Shown in pieces: positions 5,508-59,763 of a stretch of 64,000 nucleotides of DNA (the first letter of the stretch is position 1; every line of letters starts with the position of its first letter). This DNA is from an uncultured Candidatus Saccharibacteria bacterium. GTDB lineage: Bacteria > Patescibacteriota > Minisyncoccia > Minisyncoccales > MHMH01. The position numbers and the translations under genes are program-made. The stretch lies in NCBI GenBank assembly GCA_964482335.1, contig CAYZXA010000002.1:586-64585 (forward strand), read 5' to 3'. The notes beneath the pieces are model-generated. The model did no database searches, had not been told where the DNA came from, and was given only the letters and a program-made list of their open reading frames with translations.

Positions 5508-6053
5508 TTAATTTTGGTAAAAAGTCAAGTAGCTGAGACGCAAGGGATCACCTCTCGCATACTGAAGCCTCGCTCCTATACTGACAAACCCATTTATTTT
5601 TATCTCTTCAAACTTCCCCTCCTTTACTGAAACTCCTTTAGCAATGGAAATATCAACATTTTCTCCGATAAAAATAGATAATTTGTCGCTCTCTTTAGCC
5701 AAATCAAGAGTCCGACCATCAATATTCACAACCTTCGCCCGGAAGATAAAAATATAGGCAGTAGCAAAAGGGCTTCCCTCGTTTAAAATCTGTACCCCTT
5801 GATAAACCAGTTTAGAATTCTGCAACTGCTCTAAAGTAATATCGGCATTTACGCTATCGTAATATTCTTCTTCAACGTCAATCATCTGCGACTCGGGTGT
5901 AACTGGTTCCTGCTCTCCGTTATCAACTACTGGACCATTCTCGTCAATTACTTGGCCATTCTCACCATTACGATTATATAAACTGTATAAACCAAATCCG
6001 ATAGCACAAATCAATACCACTACCAAAGAACCAATTACAATCTTTTTTTTCAT
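5508..6053 (-). CDS. Membrane-anchored small beta-domain protein (DUF5666-like), divergent paralog
   Basis: 181 aa with an N-terminal TM anchor (IVIGSLVVVLICAIGFGLY). The C-terminal KFEEIKINGFVSIGA matches the family motif. Confidence 0.75.
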   Translation of the reverse strand: MKKKIVIGSLVVVLICAIGFGLYSLYNRNGENGQVIDENGPVVDNGEQEPVTPESQMIDVEEEYYDSVNADITLEQLQNSKLVYQGVQILNEGSPFATAYIFIFRAKVVNIDGRTLDLAKESDKLSIFIGENVDISIAKGVSVKEGKFEEIKINGFVSIGARLQYARGDPLRLSYLTFYQN

Positions 6054-6096
6054 TTCTCTCTCCTTTTTTTGTACTTAATGTACTATTCTTTATTTT

Positions 6097-9828: not shown

Positions 9829-10719
9829 CTAATCGCGAGGGAAAATGTCTATTTCTGTGCCCTCAAGTCTTTTATCCTCTGTAAAACTAGCGATGATAGT
9901 AATGCTGTCTCCTGCTTGGACTTCTTCGAAGTTTACCTCGGTTCTGGAACCAGAAGAACGGACCAAAAGCCTTACGAGAGAATCTTCTCTTATAAAAATA
10001 TCTAATTTTTCACCATCTCTCAATAAACTTAATGTCCGACCATTAATTTCCTCAACCGTTCCGTTTAGTCCAGCAGTCCAAGATATTGATAATGTTGATC
10101 TCTCCGATTCTTCCAGTTTTTCCAGTTCTCGCTTGTCCCAGACTGTTATGATCGCTTCAGGTTCCATGTTATCATGCTCTTGCCACCTAGCATAAACTTC
10201 TACAACGTCACCAATTTGGAGATCTTCGAATTCTATTTCTCTATATTTGGAAGTAACTCTTCCCTCACCAATTTCAACCGGAACAGCCTTAGTGATTTTT
10301 GTAACTGTGCCTGCTATTAGTTCAAATTCCTCATCCCCTATTTTCTCCTTGTTAAAAGAGACCAGAGTCAAGGTATAATCTGAAATATCGGTAATGATTA
10401 AATTCTCAAAGTGTATTGTCCACATCCAGATTAATCCTGATTGAATAAAATTACTGGTATCTAGGAGTTGGCTTACATCAAGTTGATAAGGCTTCACTTC
10501 TGGCTCTTCTTCTCCTGCCTGATAAGCTCGGTAACCCTCAATATAACCGTTTTCCTTGCCTTCTTCATAGCCTACGGCCAAACCCTCATTATAGCCATCA
10601 TTATGACCTGCCTGAAACCCAACATCATACTGTTCAGCGCCTCTCTGGTATCCAAAATAGAAACCAGCACCTCCTGCAACAAAAACCAATACCACTAACA
10701 AAATTATAATCTTTCTCAT
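9829..10719 (-). CDS. Membrane-anchored protein with two tandem DUF5666-like beta-domains
   Basis: 296 aa with a TM anchor. The family C-terminal motif occurs twice (EFEDLQIGDVVEVYA.. and NFEEVQAGDSITIIASFTEDKRLEGTEIDIFP). Confidence 0.8.
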   Translation of the reverse strand: MRKIIILLVVLVFVAGGAGFYFGYQRGAEQYDVGFQAGHNDGYNEGLAVGYEEGKENGYIEGYRAYQAGEEEPEVKPYQLDVSQLLDTSNFIQSGLIWMWTIHFENLIITDISDYTLTLVSFNKEKIGDEEFELIAGTVTKITKAVPVEIGEGRVTSKYREIEFEDLQIGDVVEVYARWQEHDNMEPEAIITVWDKRELEKLEESERSTLSISWTAGLNGTVEEINGRTLSLLRDGEKLDIFIREDSLVRLLVRSSGSRTEVNFEEVQAGDSITIIASFTEDKRLEGTEIDIFPRD

Positions 10720-10762
10720 TTCTCTCTCCTTTTTTTGTACTTAATGTACTATTCTTTGTCTT

Positions 10763-12325: not shown

Positions 12326-12364
12326 CAAGAAGTTAAGTACTTTTACATTTTAAGGAGGTGATAA

Positions 12365-12910
12365 ATGAAAAGAATTTTCCTAGCTGGCTCCACAGTATTT
12401 TTAATGCTTGGACTTGTCTGGCTCATTTTTAAATTAGTGGTGATAGACTCGCTGACCTATGTTTTCCGACCTCTTATTCTGTTATTTGCGGGAGAAAATC
12501 TGGTTATCCCAATAACTATCGCTCTCACCCTTATATTGGTCTTCGCTGTTGGACTTTTTGCCTCTCGTATTAAATTTCAGAAAATTGTTAATAAGTATTT
12601 CGAAAGAATGCTTCCCGGGGGAAAACACGGGGTTTTAGTAGAGAAGTCCGACGGTGTTTATGATTTAGCAGTCGTCATCAAGAAAATAACACTTCTAAGA
12701 TTGATTGGGGGAGAGCAAACACTTTATCTCTTATTCTATCCGTCCATCCCTTTTGTTTGGACTAGCGGATTACCGATTGGTCTGGCCAGAGAAGATAAAT
12801 TAACTCCAATCTCAAGCTCCATATGGGAAATCTACACCACAATTGCCACTTATGGCAGAAATGCTCCAGCTGTATTAGAAGAAATAGAAAATAAGAAAGA
12901 CACCGAGTGA
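12365..12910 (+). CDS. Two-TM membrane protein, possibly DUF502-like
   Basis: 181 aa with a strong RBS and two N-terminal TM helices followed by a soluble domain. The family call is weak. Confidence 0.6.
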   Translation: MKRIFLAGSTVFLMLGLVWLIFKLVVIDSLTYVFRPLILLFAGENLVIPITIALTLILVFAVGLFASRIKFQKIVNKYFERMLPGGKHGVLVEKSDGVYDLAVVIKKITLLRLIGGEQTLYLLFYPSIPFVWTSGLPIGLAREDKLTPISSSIWEIYTTIATYGRNAPAVLEEIENKKDTE

Positions 12911-14958: not shown

Positions 14959-16158
14959 TTATTTAGACTTTTTAGTTGATTTTTTCTTTTTTGGCTCTTT
15001 TTTCTTCTCTTTGGTTTTTTCTTTTTCTTTCTTTTCCTCTTTCTCTTCTTCAGCCTTCTCTGGAGGCCTTACGTCTATTTTCCAACCAGTTAACTTAGCA
15101 GCCAGTCTAACATTTTGACCACCTTTGCCAATGGCCAAAGAAAGCTGATCTTCAGGAGTAATAACCAAGGCCTTGTTTTTGGGCATAATCTTAACTTCTA
15201 AAACCTTAGCTGGAGATAAAGAATTGGCAATATATTTTTCTGGATCCTCCTGCCATTCAATAATATCAACTTTCTCTCCGCCAAGCTCATTAATCACAGC
15301 TGTTACCCTGGTGCCTCTTTGGCCAACCATAGAGCCTATAGGGTCTACTCCTTCAACAGTTGAGCTAACAGCAATCTTTGAGCGAGAACCAGCTTCTCTG
15401 GCCACAGATTTGATGACAACAGAACCTGCTGAAACTTCAGGCACTTCTATTTCAAAAAGCTTGGAAATTATCTTAGGATAAGCCCTGGAAAGAAAAACCA
15501 CTGGCCCTTTGGATGTTTCCTCTACTTTGATAATATAAACTTTAAGTCTTTGCCCAGGACGATAAAATTCACCAGGCACTTGTTCTTCTCTTGGTAAAAT
15601 ACCTAGGGTTTTGCCAATGTCTAGAAAAACTGTTCTACCCTCAACTCTCTGTACAATGCCAGAGATAATTCCACCTTCTTTTGACTTGTACTCTGAGAAA
15701 ATAACCTCTCTTTCAGCTTCTCTAATCCTTTGCAAAATAACTTGTTTGGCTGTTTGGGCAGCGATGCGGCCATAATCTTCTTGAACCTCTAAAGGTGTTT
15801 CTAAATCCTGGCCTGGTTTTATCTTTGGATTCTTTTTCTTAGCTTCCTCTGCCATGATGTGCTTTTCTGGATTAAAACGGATTTTCCTTTCTTCGGTTTC
15901 TTCTTTCTTTTCTTTTAACTTTTCTAGCTCTTCTTCAGAATAAATCATGTTTTGATCAACCACTTGTTTTACCTGCCAAAACTTAACTTGGCCAGTCTTA
16001 GGACTAAGTTTAGCCTTAATGATTTGACCTTTTTTACCGTAGTCTTTTTTATAGGCAGCAGCAATAGCCATCTCAATAGTTCCCATGACTTTCTCTGCTG
16101 GAATGCCTTTTTCTTCAGCAATTTGGTTTATGGCTGAGGTAAAGTTTTTTATATCCAT
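14959..16158 (-). CDS. nusA: Transcription termination/antitermination factor NusA with Lys/Glu-rich tail
   Basis: 399 aa with the NusA N-terminus (AINQIAEEKGIP..AIAAAYKK), S1 and KH regions, and a basic C-terminal tail. Confidence 0.9.
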   Translation of the reverse strand: MDIKNFTSAINQIAEEKGIPAEKVMGTIEMAIAAAYKKDYGKKGQIIKAKLSPKTGQVKFWQVKQVVDQNMIYSEEELEKLKEKKEETEERKIRFNPEKHIMAEEAKKKNPKIKPGQDLETPLEVQEDYGRIAAQTAKQVILQRIREAEREVIFSEYKSKEGGIISGIVQRVEGRTVFLDIGKTLGILPREEQVPGEFYRPGQRLKVYIIKVEETSKGPVVFLSRAYPKIISKLFEIEVPEVSAGSVVIKSVAREAGSRSKIAVSSTVEGVDPIGSMVGQRGTRVTAVINELGGEKVDIIEWQEDPEKYIANSLSPAKVLEVKIMPKNKALVITPEDQLSLAIGKGGQNVRLAAKLTGWKIDVRPPEKAEEEKEEKKEKEKTKEKKKEPKKKKSTKKSK

Positions 16159-16166
16159 AATTGATT

Positions 16167-16194
16167 AAATAAAATGTCCGTTTTCAAACGGACA
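16167..16194 (-). terminator. Intrinsic terminator-like hairpin in the nusA leader (possible attenuator)
   Basis: On the minus strand TGTCCGTTTGAAAACGGACA is followed by TTTTATTT, ending 8 nt before the nusA ATG. Confidence 0.5.
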
Positions 16195-16268
16195 GAATAT
16201 TCTTGTCATTCCTAAGATTAGCCTAACAAGCTAAGATTATTTGTCAAGGGGATAACTATATTCAAATC

Positions 16269-16297
16269 TTGACAAAACTTAGCAAGGGATGTACAAT
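16269..16297 (+). promoter_or_regulatory. Sigma70-like promoter TTGACA-N17-TACAAT driving the unknown sRNA
   Basis: The -35 element is at 16269..16274 and the -10 at 16292..16297. The -35 is one arm of a perfect 8-bp inverted repeat (TTGTCAAG 16241..16248 / CTTGACAA 16268..16275). Confidence 0.6.
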
Positions 16298-16303
16298 ATA
16301 ACA

Positions 16304-16424
16304 TATTAGACTAAATAGCCTTTAGCCACTTGGGAGTCTCGCCTCATTCCCTCCTTATTGAGGGCCCCGTACGGGGATAAAGGTCTTGTACCAAAAGACT
16401 CCCAGCTGGCTGGAGGTTTTTTAT
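16304..16424 (+). ncRNA. Unknown structured small RNA (~120 nt) with its own promoter and U-tract end
   Basis: A closing helix pairs GGGAGTCT (16332..16339) with AGACTCCC (16397..16404). Internal hairpins are CCTCA..TGAGG and CCCC-GTAC-GGGG. The T6 run is at 16417..16422. There is no credible ORF. I recognised no family, and the ends are approximate. Confidence 0.5.
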
Positions 16425-16460
16425 TTGCCTGCCCTAGATTAAATCTTGGTGAGATTATAA

Positions 16461-16534
16461 TGGACCCGGTGGGATTCGAACCCACGACCTCCGCAATGCG
16501 AATGCGGCGTTCTAGCCAATTGAACTACAGGCCC
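16461..16534 (-). tRNA. tRNA-Ala (anticodon CGC)
   Basis: I folded the cloverleaf by hand: acceptor GGGCCTG with G3:U70, anticodon loop TTCGCAT, T-loop GGTTCGAATCC. No CCA is encoded. Confidence 0.9.
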
Positions 16535-16827
16535 AAGACTTGTCTTATTCTCTCTACTTCTTTTTCTACTACCTCACCTTTGTATTCAGCAGAGTGAGCT
16601 GGTACTCCTTTGTAAATCGGCTTCTTCTGGTCAAGGTGAAGGTTGATAATTGTTTGATGTGAAACTTTATCGATTTTCACATAAGCATGAAGTTTAGGAT
16701 AACCTGACTTTGAAACGCCAATAATCCGAGAAAATGCTAGTTCCTCTTTGTCTTTTTTCTCAAAATGATAACCAGCTCGCCGCATTAAGTTGTAGATATT
16801 AACCTGAGATTCTAAAACAAGCTTCAT
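16525..16827 (-). CDS. Hypothetical protein
   Basis: 100-aa ORF with no recognisable motifs. Its 3' end overlaps the 5' end of tRNA-Ala by 10 nt. Confidence 0.5.
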   Translation of the reverse strand: MKLVLESQVNIYNLMRRAGYHFEKKDKEELAFSRIIGVSKSGYPKLHAYVKIDKVSHQTIINLHLDQKKPIYKGVPAHSAEYKGEVVEKEVERIRQVLGL

Positions 16828-19835: not shown

Positions 19836-19854
19836 TTAAATAATACCTTAGAAT

Positions 19855-19882
19855 TTGATTTTTTTCAAATCTCTGGTATAAT
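19855..19882 (+). promoter_or_regulatory. Sigma70-like promoter TTGATT-N16-TATAAT upstream of tRNA-Arg
   Basis: The -10 element ends 9 nt before the first tRNA nucleotide. Confidence 0.5.
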
Positions 19883-19891
19883 TAAAAAGTT

Positions 19892-19963
19892 GCCCTTGTG
19901 GTGAAACGGATATCATGTCTGCCTTCGAAGCAGAGGTTCTAGGTTCGAATCCTAGCGAGGGCA
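19892..19963 (+). tRNA. tRNA-Arg (anticodon TCG)
   Basis: Hand-folded: acceptor GCCCTTG/CGAGGGC, anticodon stem TCTGC/GCAGA with loop CTTCGAA, T-loop GGTTCGAATCC. No CCA is encoded. Confidence 0.85.
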
Positions 19964-27078: not shown

Positions 27079-27894
27079 ATGAAGAAGTGCTTGATATTCT
27101 TATTGGCTTTAATAGTCATCTTGAATGGAACACTGATTGGTTGCTCCTGCGAAAATGGTGACGGAGAACCAAGTAGTGAAACAATGGGAACAATTGATGT
27201 GCCAGAAGGAGGAAAAATCAAAGTTGTCTCTAAGCTGCCGGCAGAATTAAAGCTTACTTTGGAAGAACTAGGAATAGATCAATACTTCCAGCTGGTTTTT
27301 GCTGGAAAAGTGAAAAATATATCTAGTTACAGTGTAAGTTTTGACAAAATCTCATTTATTCTGGACGGAGAAGAAATAGCCTACCGGCGTACTTGGTTTG
27401 ATGACCCTTCAAGGTCTGACTATAAACCTTTAGGGCCTGGTGAGGAATTGGAGTTCTATTTTGGTAAAATACTAGGCGTAGAGAAAACACAGAAAGCGAA
27501 ACTCCTGGAAGTGAAAGCTGTAAACTTCCAAATAATTGGAGGCTCAACAACGCCAACAAAACCAACACCATCGGAGCCAACAGAGCCAGAGATGACGACA
27601 GAAGAAGTGCTAATAAAGTGGTTTGATTTAATGAAAAAGGAGAAATTCTCAGAGGCCGAAAAGCTTCTTGCTCCAGATTATAAAAAGCATCTTGATTCTT
27701 ACGGCGGTCTAAAGAAAATGTGGCAAGAAAATCCCATGACAGAAATAAAAATATTGGGAACACAGTTTGAAACCAAAACAGCTATTGTTTATGTTATAAT
27801 TACGTTCGAAGACGATACTGTCTGGGACAATGATGCCAGGTTTCGCTTTGAAAAAATAGATAACGAATGGAAAATAGATGAAATCTCGCAATAG
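27079..27894 (+). CDS. Putative lipoprotein
   Basis: 271 aa with a signal peptide carrying the lipobox LIGC. I recognised no other family. Confidence 0.7.
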   Translation: MKKCLIFLLALIVILNGTLIGCSCENGDGEPSSETMGTIDVPEGGKIKVVSKLPAELKLTLEELGIDQYFQLVFAGKVKNISSYSVSFDKISFILDGEEIAYRRTWFDDPSRSDYKPLGPGEELEFYFGKILGVEKTQKAKLLEVKAVNFQIIGGSTTPTKPTPSEPTEPEMTTEEVLIKWFDLMKKEKFSEAEKLLAPDYKKHLDSYGGLKKMWQENPMTEIKILGTQFETKTAIVYVIITFEDDTVWDNDARFRFEKIDNEWKIDEISQ

Positions 27895-39180: not shown

Positions 39181-40539
39181 ATGAATAAGGATGAGTTATG
39201 GCAAGCCTTGCTTGCCCAAATCCAGTTTAATATTTCCAAGGCCAACTTTGCCACCTGGTTTAAGAACACCGGAGTCTTCTCTAAAAAAGAAGGAGAAATA
39301 ATTATTTCTGTTCCTAATAATTTCTCCAAAGAATGGCTAGAAAACAAATACAATAAACTGATCTTTAAGATTCTCCGTAATTTAGACGAGGAAATCAAAG
39401 AGGTAAAGTATTCTGTGAGCAAACCAGGATTAAAAACTAAAGGATCTTCGGCTTCTTTCGTTGGTGCTTTGGTAGAGACGCCCCAGCTTGAATTTCAGGA
39501 ATTTAAGATTAACAAAGAAACTAATTTAAATCCCCGCTATACTTTTGAAAACTTTATTGTTGGTCCATTCAACGAACTTCCCCAGGCAGCTGCTTGGGCA
39601 ATTTCTCAAAACCCTGGTTCTGTTTACAATCCTTTATTTATTTACGGCGGTGTGGGGCTGGGCAAAACCCATCTTCTCCAGGCAATCGGCAACGAGGTTA
39701 TCAAAAAGGTTCCTCAAAAAAGAATAAAATATGTCTCTTCTGAGAAATTCACCTCTGGCATAATCAGTTCGATTAGAAATCATGACGTTGAGAAATTCAA
39801 GTCTCTATATAAGGATATTGATGTCTTAATGATTGACGATATCCAGTTTTTGTCGGGCAAAGAGAAAACTCAAGAAGAGTTTTTCCATGTCTTTAATGAT
39901 CTATATGAAAAGAATAAGCAAATAGTTCTTTCTTCTGACCGTCCGCCAAAAGCAATCTCAGCATTAGAAGAGAGGCTGAGATCTCGTTTTGAGGGCGGCA
40001 TGATAGCTGATATCGGCCTGCCTGACCTTGAAACAAGGCTAGCTATTTTAAAGGCTAAGTCCCAAGAAAAAAAGGTAAATTTCTCTAACGAGATATTAGA
40101 ATACATTGCTTCCAATATCCAGATAAACATTAGAGAGCTGGAAGGAGCTTTAAACAGGTTGGCAGCCTATCAAAAATTAAACAATAAACCTCCTAATTTA
40201 GAGGTGGCCAAAACCCTTTTAAAGAACATTATCTTCTCCCCCAAGAAAGTGGCTAATCCTGACAAAATAATAAAGGCCGTGGCTTTTTTCTACGACTTAA
40301 AGGAAAAAGATATTCTGGCTACTTCCAGAAAAAAAGAGATTGTTAAACCCCGTCAGATAGCCATGTATTTTTTGAGACAAGAGCTAAAAAGTTCTTTCCC
40401 TTTTATCGGTAGAAAGTTTGGCGGCAAAGACCACACTACGGCCATTCACGCCTATAATAAGATTGTGAAAGAGTTGGGGACAAGCGATAGTTTGACAGAG
40501 GAAATCAGCTTAATAAAAGAACAAATTTATCGCCTCTAG
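39181..40539 (+). CDS. dnaA: Chromosomal replication initiator DnaA
   Basis: 452 aa with Walker A GGVGLGKTHL and the C-terminal DNA-binding signature ..DHTTAIHAYNKI.. Confidence 0.95.
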   Translation: MNKDELWQALLAQIQFNISKANFATWFKNTGVFSKKEGEIIISVPNNFSKEWLENKYNKLIFKILRNLDEEIKEVKYSVSKPGLKTKGSSASFVGALVETPQLEFQEFKINKETNLNPRYTFENFIVGPFNELPQAAAWAISQNPGSVYNPLFIYGGVGLGKTHLLQAIGNEVIKKVPQKRIKYVSSEKFTSGIISSIRNHDVEKFKSLYKDIDVLMIDDIQFLSGKEKTQEEFFHVFNDLYEKNKQIVLSSDRPPKAISALEERLRSRFEGGMIADIGLPDLETRLAILKAKSQEKKVNFSNEILEYIASNIQINIRELEGALNRLAAYQKLNNKPPNLEVAKTLLKNIIFSPKKVANPDKIIKAVAFFYDLKEKDILATSRKKEIVKPRQIAMYFLRQELKSSFPFIGRKFGGKDHTTAIHAYNKIVKELGTSDSLTEEISLIKEQIYRL

Positions 40540-40628
40540 TTTTAAACACTTAATATTAGACATTCGTCAACAGTCTTTCCCCAAAGAAATTAATATAAAA
40601 AATTATTATTAATCACACCATAACAACT

Positions 40629-41768
40629 ATGAAAGTAATAATATTAAAAGAAAACTTAAATAATGGATTGAACATTGTTAGTAGAGTGGCTGGAAAAAAC
40701 TTGACCTTGCCTATTTTAAATAACATCTTATTAACAACTGAAGGAAATTTTTTAAGCATTTCTTCGACTGACTTAGAATTAGGTATCAAATACTGGTCTT
40801 TAGGAAAAATAGAGAGACAAGGCGGTCTAACTGTGCCAGCGAAGATTCTGTCCAGTTTTGTCAATCTCCTGCCAGAAGAAAAGATTGCTTTAGAGGTAAA
40901 AAGTCAAGTTTTATATATTGACTGTGGAAATAATAAAACACAAATTAAAGGGTTAGACGCTCAAGAATACCCGATTATTCCTAAAATTGAAGACGATAAA
41001 CCCATCGAATTAAACACTCTGCCTTTCTGTGAAGGGATAGCTCAAGTAGTTGATTTTACAGCCCCCAACCAGACCCGGCCCGAACTGTCTGGTATCTATT
41101 TGAGATTCCAAAGAGATAGGGCGCTATTGGTAGCCACAGACAGTTTTAGATTAGCTGAAAAAACCCTTTATTTCGAACAAAAAATAGACAGAGAAGAATC
41201 ATTTATTCTTCCTCAAAAAGCAGCCAGAGAGTTAGTTAACATCTTTTCTGAGAGAAAAGGCAAGCTGAAACTTTATTTTTCTCCTAATCAGATATTATTT
41301 GAATATCCAATGTCAGAAACTACTCACCCTCAAATTCAAGTTGTCTCCCGCTTGATCGAAGGAGATTATCCGGACTACCAGAGCATTATTCCCCAGAAGC
41401 ACGATGTCCAGCTTTCCCTGTCTAAGAACGAATTTTTGAACCAAGTTAAGGCAGCCAGTATCTTCAGCGGCAAGTCTAATGAAGTTAAAATAAAAGTTAA
41501 TATTAAAAAACAAGAGATTGAGATGCTCAGCCAAAGCCCAGAGCTTGGCGAAAACAGAAGTGTTCTGGCAGGTAAGGTCACGGATACTTCAGGCAAGGTC
41601 AAAGAGATAGAAACAACGTTTAACTATCGATTCTTAGTTGATGGATTATTAAATATAAAAAGCTCAAAAGTTCTTTTCGAGCTCAACGGGGAAGAGGGTC
41701 CAGCAGTTTTACGACCAGAAGGTGACACCAATTATTTGTACGTTGTTATGCCCATTAAGGCTACTTAG
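40629..41768 (+). CDS. dnaN: DNA polymerase III beta sliding clamp
   Basis: 379 aa immediately downstream of dnaA, with a typical N-terminus MKVIILKENLNNGLNIVSRV. Confidence 0.9.
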   Translation: MKVIILKENLNNGLNIVSRVAGKNLTLPILNNILLTTEGNFLSISSTDLELGIKYWSLGKIERQGGLTVPAKILSSFVNLLPEEKIALEVKSQVLYIDCGNNKTQIKGLDAQEYPIIPKIEDDKPIELNTLPFCEGIAQVVDFTAPNQTRPELSGIYLRFQRDRALLVATDSFRLAEKTLYFEQKIDREESFILPQKAARELVNIFSERKGKLKLYFSPNQILFEYPMSETTHPQIQVVSRLIEGDYPDYQSIIPQKHDVQLSLSKNEFLNQVKAASIFSGKSNEVKIKVNIKKQEIEMLSQSPELGENRSVLAGKVTDTSGKVKEIETTFNYRFLVDGLLNIKSSKVLFELNGEEGPAVLRPEGDTNYLYVVMPIKAT

Positions 41769-57883: not shown

Positions 57884-58246
57884 ATGAGAGATAAAAAAAA
57901 TCAAAAACTAGCAGAAAGAGATTTTAACTCTTTTATTAATGACCTAAAGATAGGTGGATTAGAGTTTGAGATTATTGAGGAAAATGAGATTAAGAAGAAT
58001 TGTCTAAAAGGTCTTTATAACAGAGCAAAAGAGGTTCTTTTCCAAGTTAATCCCGAAGAACTTTTATTATTTGTATTCAGAGATAAAAAAACGCAAGCTT
58101 GTTGGTCCTCGGAAGACTATTCAGGGAGCGTCATAATCAATATGGCTTATAATCTTGAAATTAGCGAGCTTAAAAAGGCAAGAGGGGAAGCCAGGGAGAA
58201 AGTCCGGCAGGAGCTCGATTTAGTAATAGTCGAACCAGAAACTTAG
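57884..58246 (+). CDS. Hypothetical protein
   Basis: 120 aa with a strong RBS (GGGAGGAGG). I recognised no family. Confidence 0.65.
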   Translation: MRDKKNQKLAERDFNSFINDLKIGGLEFEIIEENEIKKNCLKGLYNRAKEVLFQVNPEELLLFVFRDKKTQACWSSEDYSGSVIINMAYNLEISELKKARGEAREKVRQELDLVIVEPET

Positions 58247-58320: not shown

Positions 58321-59763
58321 ATGAAGAAGTCTGATTTCAAAAAAATATCAGATTGGCTTTGGGAGATTCCCAAGGGTTTTAGAGAAGACATGCGAGTGCC
58401 AGCTCGTGTTTATGCTTCAGAGAAAATGTTAGAAAACATCTTTCAAGACAGAAGTATCCCACAGCTGATTAATGGTACAACTCTACCTGGTATAGTTAGA
58501 CACGGTATTGCCATGCCCGATTGTCATGAGGGGTACTCTGTACCCATTGGTTTTGTTGGCGCCATCAGGACTTCTGACGGCGTTATTTCACCTGGTGCTT
58601 GCGGTTTTGATATTAACTGCGGTATGAGATTATTAAAATCAGAGCTGACTAAAAAAGACATTAAACCTCATTTAGAGAATTTAGCTACAGAAATACAAAA
58701 ACAAGTTCCTTCGGGCCTGGGCCAAGGCAGGCAGGTTAAGTTAAGCATTGGAGAGGTTGATAAAATCTTAAAAGGTGGAGCCCAAAGACTTGTTGAGCAA
58801 GGCTATGGTCAGAAAGAAGATATTGAGAATTGTGAAGCTCAGGGCAGATTAGATTGGGCTGACAGCTCTGTAGTTTCTTTGCGCGCTAAGGATCGGGGCA
58901 GAGATCAGGTGGGGACTCTCGGGAGTGGAAATCATTTTATCGAACTTCAAAAAGTAGAGGAGATTTTTGATGAAACAGTGGCTAAGAATTTCGGACTCTT
59001 CAGAAACCAGGTTGTCATTATGATTCATACTGGTTCAAGAGGTCTTGGCCATCAAGTCTGTACTGATTATTTAAGAACAATGATTCCAGCCATGCAAAGA
59101 TACAACATTAAAGTACCTGATCGAGAGTTTGCCTGTGTGCCATTTAAATCTTCAGAAGGTCAGCAATATTTTAAAGCTATGGGCGCAGCTGCTAACTATG
59201 CTTGGGCTAACCGACAGATGATCGCTCATTTTGTCAGAAAGGCCTGGCAGCAAGTATTGGGCGAGAAAGCTTCACCTTTAATCCCTTTATACGATGTAGC
59301 TCACAATATTATTAAAAAGGAGAAATATGTTATTGAAGGTAAAGAAACCGAATTAGCTGTTCACCGTAAAGGAGCCACCAGAGCCTTTCCGCCAGGGCAT
59401 AATAAAATTCCAGCAAAATACCAAAAAACAGGTCAGCCGGTTTTAATTCCAGGTTCTATGGGTACTGCTTCCTATGTCTTGGTAGGACAGAAACAAGGCG
59501 AAGAAGCTTTTTATTCAACAAACCATGGAGCAGGTAGAACCATGTCTCGCAGAGAGGCTACCAGGCGCATCTCTGGACAGGAAGTCATAAAAAGGTTAGA
59601 ACAAAAAGGAATCATCATTAAATGCTGGAGCCAGAGAGGTATTGCCGAAGAAGCACCCATGGCTTATAAAAATGTTGATGATGTGGTAGAGGTGGTTGAG
59701 AAAGCTGGCCTATCAAAGAAAGTTGCCAGAGTAGTGCCTTTAGCCGTCATAAAAGGTGAATAA
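58321..59763 (+). CDS. rtcB: RNA 3'-phosphate ligase RtcB
   Basis: 480 aa with MPDCHEGY, GSGNHF, IPGSMGTASY and NHGAGR. Confidence 0.95.
   Translation: MKKSDFKKISDWLWEIPKGFREDMRVPARVYASEKMLENIFQDRSIPQLINGTTLPGIVRHGIAMPDCHEGYSVPIGFVGAIRTSDGVISPGACGFDINCGMRLLKSELTKKDIKPHLENLATEIQKQVPSGLGQGRQVKLSIGEVDKILKGGAQRLVEQGYGQKEDIENCEAQGRLDWADSSVVSLRAKDRGRDQVGTLGSGNHFIELQKVEEIFDETVAKNFGLFRNQVVIMIHTGSRGLGHQVCTDYLRTMIPAMQRYNIKVPDREFACVPFKSSEGQQYFKAMGAAANYAWANRQMIAHFVRKAWQQVLGEKASPLIPLYDVAHNIIKKEKYVIEGKETELAVHRKGATRAFPPGHNKIPAKYQKTGQPVLIPGSMGTASYVLVGQKQGEEAFYSTNHGAGRTMSRREATRRISGQEVIKRLEQKGIIIKCWSQRGIAEEAPMAYKNVDDVVEVVEKAGLSKKVARVVPLAVIKGE

Follow-up and report, generated by a model that had tools for sequence, protein, structure and literature searches.

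Candidate Phyla Radiation (CPR) bacteria have tiny genomes with few recognisable regulators, and to our knowledge essentially nothing is known about riboregulation in these organisms. A segment upstream of nusA in a 64,000-nucleotide stretch of DNA (here named the window) raised the question of whether it encodes an independent small RNA (sRNA) and how such an RNA might act. A preliminary description had proposed a novel, lineage-specific sRNA with its own promoter and, speculatively, a Y-RNA-like role. In this work, we analysed the locus together with its homologues and found that the region is very probably a genuine functional noncoding RNA gene.

Homologues of the NusA protein encoded in the window point to a Candidatus Nealsonbacteria-like member of the Paceibacteria (CPR) as the host. 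At gathering thresholds, Rfam recognised four tRNAs and no rRNA in the whole window. The sRNA gene lies between the divergent nusA gene and a convergent gene for tRNA-Ala(CGC) (Table 1). A 100-amino-acid hypothetical open reading frame (ORF; 16525-16827, minus strand) overlaps the 5' end of the tRNA-Ala gene by 11 nt (16525-16535). The overlap recurs in locus L012 (ORF, 96-395; tRNA, 389-460), and the arrangement in both sequences suggests that the ORF and the tRNA may be co-transcribed. Farther away, cumulative GC skew and gene orientation flip near 19.9 kb (about 19850-19900), with genes mostly on the minus strand before this point and mostly on the plus strand after it. The dnaA-dnaN genes are found at 39181-41768, 20 kb from the switch, and the replication origin may not be adjacent to dnaA.

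TABLE 1 Coordinates of the sRNA gene, its predicted structural elements and its neighbours in the window
Feature	Position	Strand	Remarks
nusA	14959-16158	-	399 amino acids; invariant divergent neighbour of the sRNA
nusA 5'-leader hairpin	16175-16194	-	UGUCCGUUUGAAAACGGACA, then UUUUAUUU; terminator-like; belongs to nusA, not to the sRNA
nusA -35 box	16242-16247	-	TTGACA; other half of the inverted repeat; divergent promoter
sRNA promoter	16269-16297	+	-35 TTGACA, 16269-16274; 17-nt spacer; -10 TACAAT, 16292-16297
Predicted sRNA transcript	16304-16422	+	About 119 nt; 5' end inferred from the -10 box, 3' end in T6
Closing stem, 5' arm	16317-16339	+	C16329 unpaired
Hairpin 1	16341-16364	+	Stem GCCUCA (16341-16346) with UGAGGG (16359-16364); 12-nt loop UUCCCUCCUUAU (16347-16358)
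Hairpin 2	16365-16376	+	CCCC-GUAC-GGGG; base CCC/GGG invariant; length and sequence of the upper stem and loop variable
Junction AUAAA, hairpin 3 (GGU-CUUGU-ACC), junction AAA	16377-16395	+	Conserved
Closing stem, 3' arm	16396-16418	+	C16406 unpaired; with T6 (16417-16422) forms the intrinsic terminator
tRNA-Ala(CGC)	16460-16535	-	Convergent, downstream of the sRNA; this flank varies among homologues

Back-to-back promoters of the sRNA gene and nusA

The promoter TTGACA-N17-TACAAT that the preliminary description had placed upstream of the sRNA is present at 16269-16297. It matches TTGACA-N17-TATAAT at 11 of 12 positions, and its -10 box is preceded by TG, which resembles an extended -10 element. 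Three sites with at most one mismatch to this consensus occur in the 64-kb window, including the sRNA promoter itself (chance expectation, 0.7). Homologues with available flank carry cTTGACAAa-N16-17-TATAAT upstream of the RNA at a fixed distance.

The inverted repeat described earlier was likewise found, as TTGTCAAG (16241-16248) and CTTGACAA (16268-16275) separated by 19 nt. Each half is a -35 box, and the two boxes belong to the divergent promoters of nusA and the sRNA. The idea that the repeat serves as a shared operator gained no support. The gap between the two back-to-back -35 boxes ranges from about 5 to 19 nt across homologues, which argues against a fixed dimer operator, and the nusA-side TTGACA is kept upstream of nusA whether or not a relative has the sRNA. 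In relatives that lack the sRNA, this box is followed by a plausible -10 box and the nusA leader. One such relative, L004, shows the same back-to-back layout: about 60-150 nt upstream of nusA, the strand opposite to it carries TGTCAATCTTGACAAA-N17-TATTAT, which in this case seems to serve a protein-coding gene preceded by a strong Shine-Dalgarno sequence (SD; AAAGGAGGAG).

The nusA leader contains a hairpin of its own. In the window and in loci L001 to L080, it takes the form (G)UCCG-loop-CGGAC plus a U-tract and is located between the conserved TTGACA -35 box and the nusA start codon, at 10-150 nt from the latter. A crude core pattern (CCG, 4-12 nt, CGG) matches 56 of 79 Paceibacteria nusA loci, and the hairpin has no match in Rfam. 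From its sequence, it looks like a terminator or attenuator, and it may be a site of NusA autoregulation. Furthermore, locus L018 contains tandem units of about 60-70 nt (…AAGCTTCCGAAGGAAGCG…GAAAAGAGCGCAAAGCGCTCTTTGAGTAAC…) in several copies about 100-450 nt upstream of nusA.

Predicted fold and termination of the sRNA

The plus strand of the sRNA region folds with -52.6 kcal/mol (z = -5.6), and none of 200 shuffled sequences was as stable, whereas the fold of the minus strand is weaker (-46.0 kcal/mol, z = -3.5). In the predicted structure, a closing stem of 22 bp with a single C/C mismatch (C16329/C16406) is capped by three hairpins on a four-way junction, of which hairpin 3 has 3 bp and a 5-nt YUURU loop. 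The closing helix had been noticed before, and its two arms, GGGAGTCT (16332-16339) and AGACTCCC (16397-16404), were found as proposed, as was the T6 run (16417-16422). The helix exists, but its length had been underestimated by far, since it comprises 22 pairs joining 16317-16339 with 16396-16418. Also, three internal hairpins are present where two had been counted.

The segment had been taken to be free of ORFs, but two mechanically called ORFs overlap it, at 16358-16597 (plus strand) and 16306-16485 (minus strand). Both run through the tRNA-Ala gene. Coding potential was rejected: homologues differ in hairpin 2 by indels of 1-5 nt, which are not multiples of three, so that the homologues share no reading frame, and the substitutions compensate for each other in the RNA.

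Termination follows one of two arrangements. Either the T-run directly follows the closing stem, or, in L001, L085, L087, L089, L090, and L093, this T-run is missing and a separate GC-rich canonical terminator hairpin with a T-run is found within about 10 nt. A T-run or a separate terminator hairpin follows the RNA in 18 of 20 distinct full-length aligned copies, the exceptions being L081 and L092. With its own promoter and terminator, the sRNA is an independent transcription unit by sequence criteria. In L081 and L092, a 3' extension has the conserved flanks uuucccagaguccau ... ggauugugggaagga around a variable hairpin (L092, 3870-4070; L081, 1511-1711), and an ORF of 116 amino acids with a strong SD (AAAGGAGGA) is encoded on the same strand about 200 nt downstream of the sRNA.

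Distribution in related bacteria

We found 23 further copies of the sRNA, 6 via synteny with nusA and 17 via a context-free pattern scan of metagenomes. For the synteny search, 80 GTDB species-representative nusA loci fetched through NusA were searched with nhmmer and with a covariance model based on the first three copies, and the sRNA was detected upstream of nusA in 3 of the 80. It was also present in three of four contigs fetched through close NusA proteins; the fourth contig ends 81 nt upstream of nusA. The metagenome scan used the conserved core CCTCCTTA-N4-RGGCCC-N3-16-GGGATAA irrespective of context and returned 17 loci, all with a full copy (85-132 bits) or an end-truncated copy (75 bits). 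Every copy with enough flank is oriented divergently from nusA, with 150-290 nt between the nusA start and the beginning of the sRNA stem. On the other side, the neighbour varies and is a tRNA gene, a PIN-domain gene, or hypothetical genes.

The covariance models R1 and R2 detected no copy in the remaining 77 GTDB Paceibacteria nusA loci (NusA identity of ≤79%), so the family is either narrow or, in those 77 genomes, sited elsewhere or diverged. A scan of viral contigs with the core pattern also gave no copy. The known diversity amounts to about seven sequence subgroups and 22 distinct sequences, and the family appears to be confined to a genus- or family-level clade of Nealsonbacteria-like (CPR) bacteria.

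Support for the fold and for the plus strand

In the model-based alignment, 96.3% of the cells are paired, compared with 29-59% when the partners are slid by 1-3 columns. Changes on both sides were found in 12 of 34 pairs, namely, 8 of the 22 pairs of the closing stem (96.4% of its cells are paired), 3 in hairpin 1, and 1 in hairpin 3, where the third pair changes from G-C to U-A. No shuffle reached the observed covariation score. An independent alignment with MAFFT, analysed with RNAalifold, recovered the closing stem, hairpin 2, and hairpin 3 with nine covarying pairs. The check suggested in the preliminary description, covariation among homologous intergenic regions, thus turned out in favour of the RNA, with conserved helices and compensatory changes in 12 pairs. 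The C16329/C16406 mismatch is not conserved and is replaced by an A-U pair in L089, L090, and L093.

Three pairings are possible for hairpin 1. Compensatory changes (U-A to C-G in eight sequences, and others) are confined to CCUCA:UGAGG, a pairing that leaves UUCCCUCCUUAU as a 12-nt loop. An alternative pairing, CCCUC:GAGGG, would bury CCUCC; it shows zero covariation and is disfavoured, although it could form as a transient conformer. The third candidate, a 4-bp pairing given by RNAalifold on the independent alignment, shows zero covariation as well.

The covariance model scores the plus strand at 125 bits and the minus strand at 32 bits, and the closing stem contains G-U pairs that can form on the plus strand only. 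Together, these observations identify the plus strand as the functional one.

Sequence conservation was assessed on seven copies that had been found without the loop as a search key. Pairwise identity was 0.92 for the hairpin 1 loop and 0.90 for junction 2/3 (AUAAY), 0.58-0.78 for the stems, and 0.27 for both the hairpin 2 loop and the 5' flank. The junctions GAUAAY and CCAAAAG are conserved alongside the entire 12-nt loop. A candidate pseudoknot can be read from the sequence, with CCUUAU of the loop pairing with AUAA(N)GG of the junction; both sides are invariant.

The sRNA matches no Rfam family

At the gathering thresholds of Rfam 15, no family, RNase P and RsaE included, was assigned to the sRNA. 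The Rfam check proposed earlier was run on the window and seven homologous loci, and no family reached its threshold at the RNA. The reported failure to match signal recognition particle RNA, 6S RNA, 5S rRNA, or tmRNA held up to E values of ≤10, and Y RNA was not matched either. In permissive searches (E ≤ 10 and E ≤ 5), the sole recurrent match was a plant microRNA-precursor model, a generic long hairpin, with 22-33 bits against a threshold of 100, and Phe_leader gave a single weak match over one copy (27 bits versus 55). ARAGORN found no tRNA-like gene at the sRNA. 6S RNA, of about 180 nt, imitates an open promoter by means of a large bubble in the centre of a long duplex. This candidate was rejected, since the sRNA has about 119 nt, no central bubble, and no match to RF00013.

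In the literature on sRNAs of CPR bacteria and Patescibacteria, we found nothing comparable. Given the missing Rfam match and the lack of a counterpart in this literature, the sRNA represents a previously undescribed RNA family. The initial proposal of a novel, lineage-specific, independent sRNA was therefore corroborated by the promoter, structure, and terminator conserved in 23 further copies, the compensatory changes, the absence of an Rfam match, and the narrow clade.

The conserved loop resembles the 16S rRNA tail in a genome with few SDs

The best-conserved element of the sRNA is the 12-nt loop of hairpin 1, AUU(C/A)CCUCCUUA, which occurs as AUUCCCUCCUUA in the window and as AUUACCUCCUUA in L081 and L083. 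The 3' tail of 16S rRNA, which carries the anti-SD, reads GAUCACCUCCUUA in E. coli. Compared with the universal tail AUCACCUCCUUA, which is a textbook sequence and not that of the host itself, the loop agrees at 11 of 12 positions (AUUACCUCCUUA) or 10 of 12 (AUUCCCUCCUUA). The 16S 3' end was sought in the fetched loci for this comparison and was present in none of them. The C variant of the loop contains a UCCC motif. Overall, the C-rich loop is complementary to GGAGG and is predicted to be unpaired on top of a stem with three covarying pairs.

Based on crude gene calls, an SD-like motif is absent before 49 of 62 genes. When any start within the first 40 codons is allowed, at most 13 of 59 genes have an SD (background, 0.077 per 13-nt window). 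The window contains one perfect 12-nt SD, TAAGGAGGTGAT (12351-12362), which, as read from the sequence, could pair with the loop at 11 of 12 positions. The proteins behind strong SDs are mostly small and lack a Pfam domain, and four of the best five SD-led proteins have N-terminal signal-peptide, lipoprotein-like, or transmembrane segments. The strongest-SD ORFs without Pfam domains are located at 5508-6053, 9829-10719, 12365-12910, and 27079-27894. The first two of these, both on the minus strand, have identical 25-nt upstream regions with ttaagtacaaaaaaaggagagagaa before the ATG (6054-6081 and 10720-10747) and encode N-terminally hydrophobic proteins. They may be paralogues that share a duplicated expression signal. 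Another SD-led gene lies at 57884-58246.

Targets were predicted with RNAduplex, using the loop against 59 initiation regions. The top matches were SD-led genes with -10 to -13.8 kcal/mol, and composition-matched shuffled loops performed equally well on these purine-rich regions. Seven targets were obtained at ≤-10 kcal/mol, compared with a shuffle mean of 5.7, and 37% of the shuffles reached the observed number. No consistent interaction between the sRNA and the nusA leader was found in 12 genomes.

Proposed function and alternative explanations

The sRNA most plausibly falls into a known functional kind, the riboregulators that display a C-rich or anti-SD sequence in a loop. Our analysis tentatively favours a trans-acting anti-SD sRNA whose loop pairs with the SDs of target mRNAs. 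The RNA is probably made from the near-consensus sigma-70-type promoter and terminated at its own closing stem and U-run. The 22-bp stem of the predicted fold locks the 5' and 3' regions together; it would guard the sRNA against exonucleases and double as the terminator. The loop of hairpin 1 would then base-pair in trans with GGAGG-type SDs and compete with the 30S subunit, leading to less translation, and possibly less stability, of the minority of mRNAs that carry an SD. Several observations speak against such pairing. Target prediction does not discriminate, as shuffled loops are equally good. Conservation extends over the whole loop and the junctions and not just CCUCC, which could equally reflect protein binding or tertiary structure. 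The C/A variant of the loop has no visible match in the window's best SD, in which GGAGGU faces C, and an exact copy of the anti-SD in the loop would hardly discriminate between targets. The strength of the promoter suggests an abundant, constitutive RNA, a pattern seen more often in housekeeping or sponge RNAs than in condition-specific riboregulators. Finally, L081 and L092 combine the missing terminator with a strong SD on the downstream ORF of the same strand.

The main rival to anti-SD pairing, because of a promoter of consensus strength, a loop conserved throughout with its flanks, and the conserved junction nucleotides, is a mimic of the 16S tail that acts as a protein decoy. An abundant, nuclease-resistant RNA would titrate a factor that recognises the tail. 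Candidate factors are ribosomal proteins, 30S maturation factors, trimming RNases, and ribonuclease toxins that cleave the anti-SD. We consider this rather unlikely. The agreement of 10 to 11 of 12 loop positions with the textbook 16S tail fits it, the closing stem sequesters the sequences beside both ends as in stable ribonucleoprotein RNAs, and the rarity of SDs in the genome leaves few clients for an RNA-target role. Yet no candidate partner protein is linked to the locus, whose neighbours besides nusA vary, the GAUCA of the 16S tail is copied inexactly (AUU, not AUC), and we know of no RNA mimic of the 16S tail that has been described. Unlike the genuine tail, which is a free 3' end, the copy is enclosed in the loop of a hairpin within a 120-nt RNA that lies outside any rRNA operon. 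It is quite unlikely that the sRNA, in a host that has largely abandoned SD-led initiation, is an abundant decoy dedicated to mimicking the tail and captures either all remaining SD-bearing mRNAs as a class or a tail-recognising protein or toxin.

The constant position next to nusA could also mean that what matters is the divergent promoter, which would modulate nusA via competition for RNA polymerase or supercoiling and yield the RNA as a stable by-product. The sRNA is always divergent from nusA with closely spaced -35 boxes and a variable other flank, and the back-to-back promoter recurs in L004, where it serves a protein-coding gene. The sampled clade is shallow, however, which makes conserved synteny alone weak evidence, and neither the 22-bp stem nor the four-way junction nor the RNA's own terminator would be retained in a by-product. 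Since the compensatory changes in four helices and the invariant loop clearly point to selection on the RNA fold itself, a purely cis-acting role at the nusA promoter is very unlikely. A 5' leader or riboswitch-like element of a downstream gene is suggested by L081 and L092, where the extra hairpin domain and the SD-led ORF take the place of a terminator. As a general explanation it is highly improbable, because a terminator directly follows the RNA in the other 18 distinct copies and the next gene is convergent (tRNA) or unrelated, with no conserved downstream gene; outside the L081/L092 subgroup, a leader role is unlikely.

The earlier speculation about a Y-RNA-like role, taken here as that of an RNA working with Ro60/RtcB in RNA repair or quality control, fared worst and is scarcely credible. 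It drew on the closing helix formed by the two ends and on the RtcB gene in the window; a long stem of this kind with a multi-hairpin module on top is indeed a layout shared with Y RNAs and YrlA. That gene lies at 58321-59763, 42 kb from the sRNA, and the conserved linkage is to nusA rather than to rsr or rtcB. Neither a Y_RNA nor a YrlA model matched the sRNA in the window or the seven homologous loci, and no TROVE/Ro60 domain was found by Pfam among 38 ORFs of the window (all those of about 300 amino acids or more). The sRNA also lacks a tRNA-like domain with a T-arm, hairpin 3 having a stem of 3 bp and a loop of 5 nt, and a conserved Ro-binding bulge, since the stem mismatch becomes a Watson-Crick pair in some copies.

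Comparison with known anti-SD riboregulators

In Staphylococcus aureus, unpaired UCCC or C-rich motifs of RsaE and RNAIII bind SDs and block the formation of initiation complexes (PMC2790875). Like RsaE/RoxS and hairpins 7, 13, and 14 of RNAIII, the RNA described here is predicted to display a conserved unpaired C-rich motif (UUCCCUCC) in an SD-complementary hairpin loop, and it shares with them a length of about 100-120 nt and a stand-alone gene with a promoter and an intrinsic terminator. For the staphylococcal RNAs, masking of the ribosome-binding site was demonstrated (PMC2790875), and this would be the corresponding step here. The RNAs share no sequence or covariance-model similarity, and the sRNA differs in its 22-bp closing stem, its four-way junction, a single C-rich loop instead of several, and the extension of this loop to a near copy of the 16S tail. 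The hosts differ as well, a CPR bacterium with few SDs as opposed to Firmicutes with strong SDs almost everywhere.

Streptococcal csRNAs also carry unpaired anti-SD sequences that were proposed or shown to block translation initiation regions (PMC3091779). They resemble the sRNA as small RNAs with an (here predicted) unpaired anti-SD sequence. In the CiaR-dependent csRNAs, the anti-SD is located in a linear region between two stem-loops together with an anti-AUG, whereas it lies in a hairpin loop in the sRNA, where the distance between CCUCC and the CAU 5' of the loop is too short for CAU to serve as an anti-start codon with the usual spacing of SD and AUG. Furthermore, csRNAs are multicopy and controlled by CiaR, whereas the sRNA is present in a single copy per locus behind a consensus housekeeping-type promoter.

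Implications for CPR bacteria

The narrow range of the family, at the genus or family level, limits its general importance. Within this range, the sRNA is a clean candidate for a CPR riboregulator, with a promoter, a terminator, a covariation-supported fold, and a functional-looking loop, and it offers a testable idea: anti-SD pairing in a genome that has kept SDs before no more than a handful of its genes. Should the RNA instead be a decoy that soaks up SD-bearing mRNAs, it would be a global switch between SD-led and SD-less translation. If trans-acting anti-SD pairing is true, the SD-led envelope proteins would be the regulated set, and the loop-displayed C-rich seed strategy of Firmicutes would have arisen independently in the CPR.
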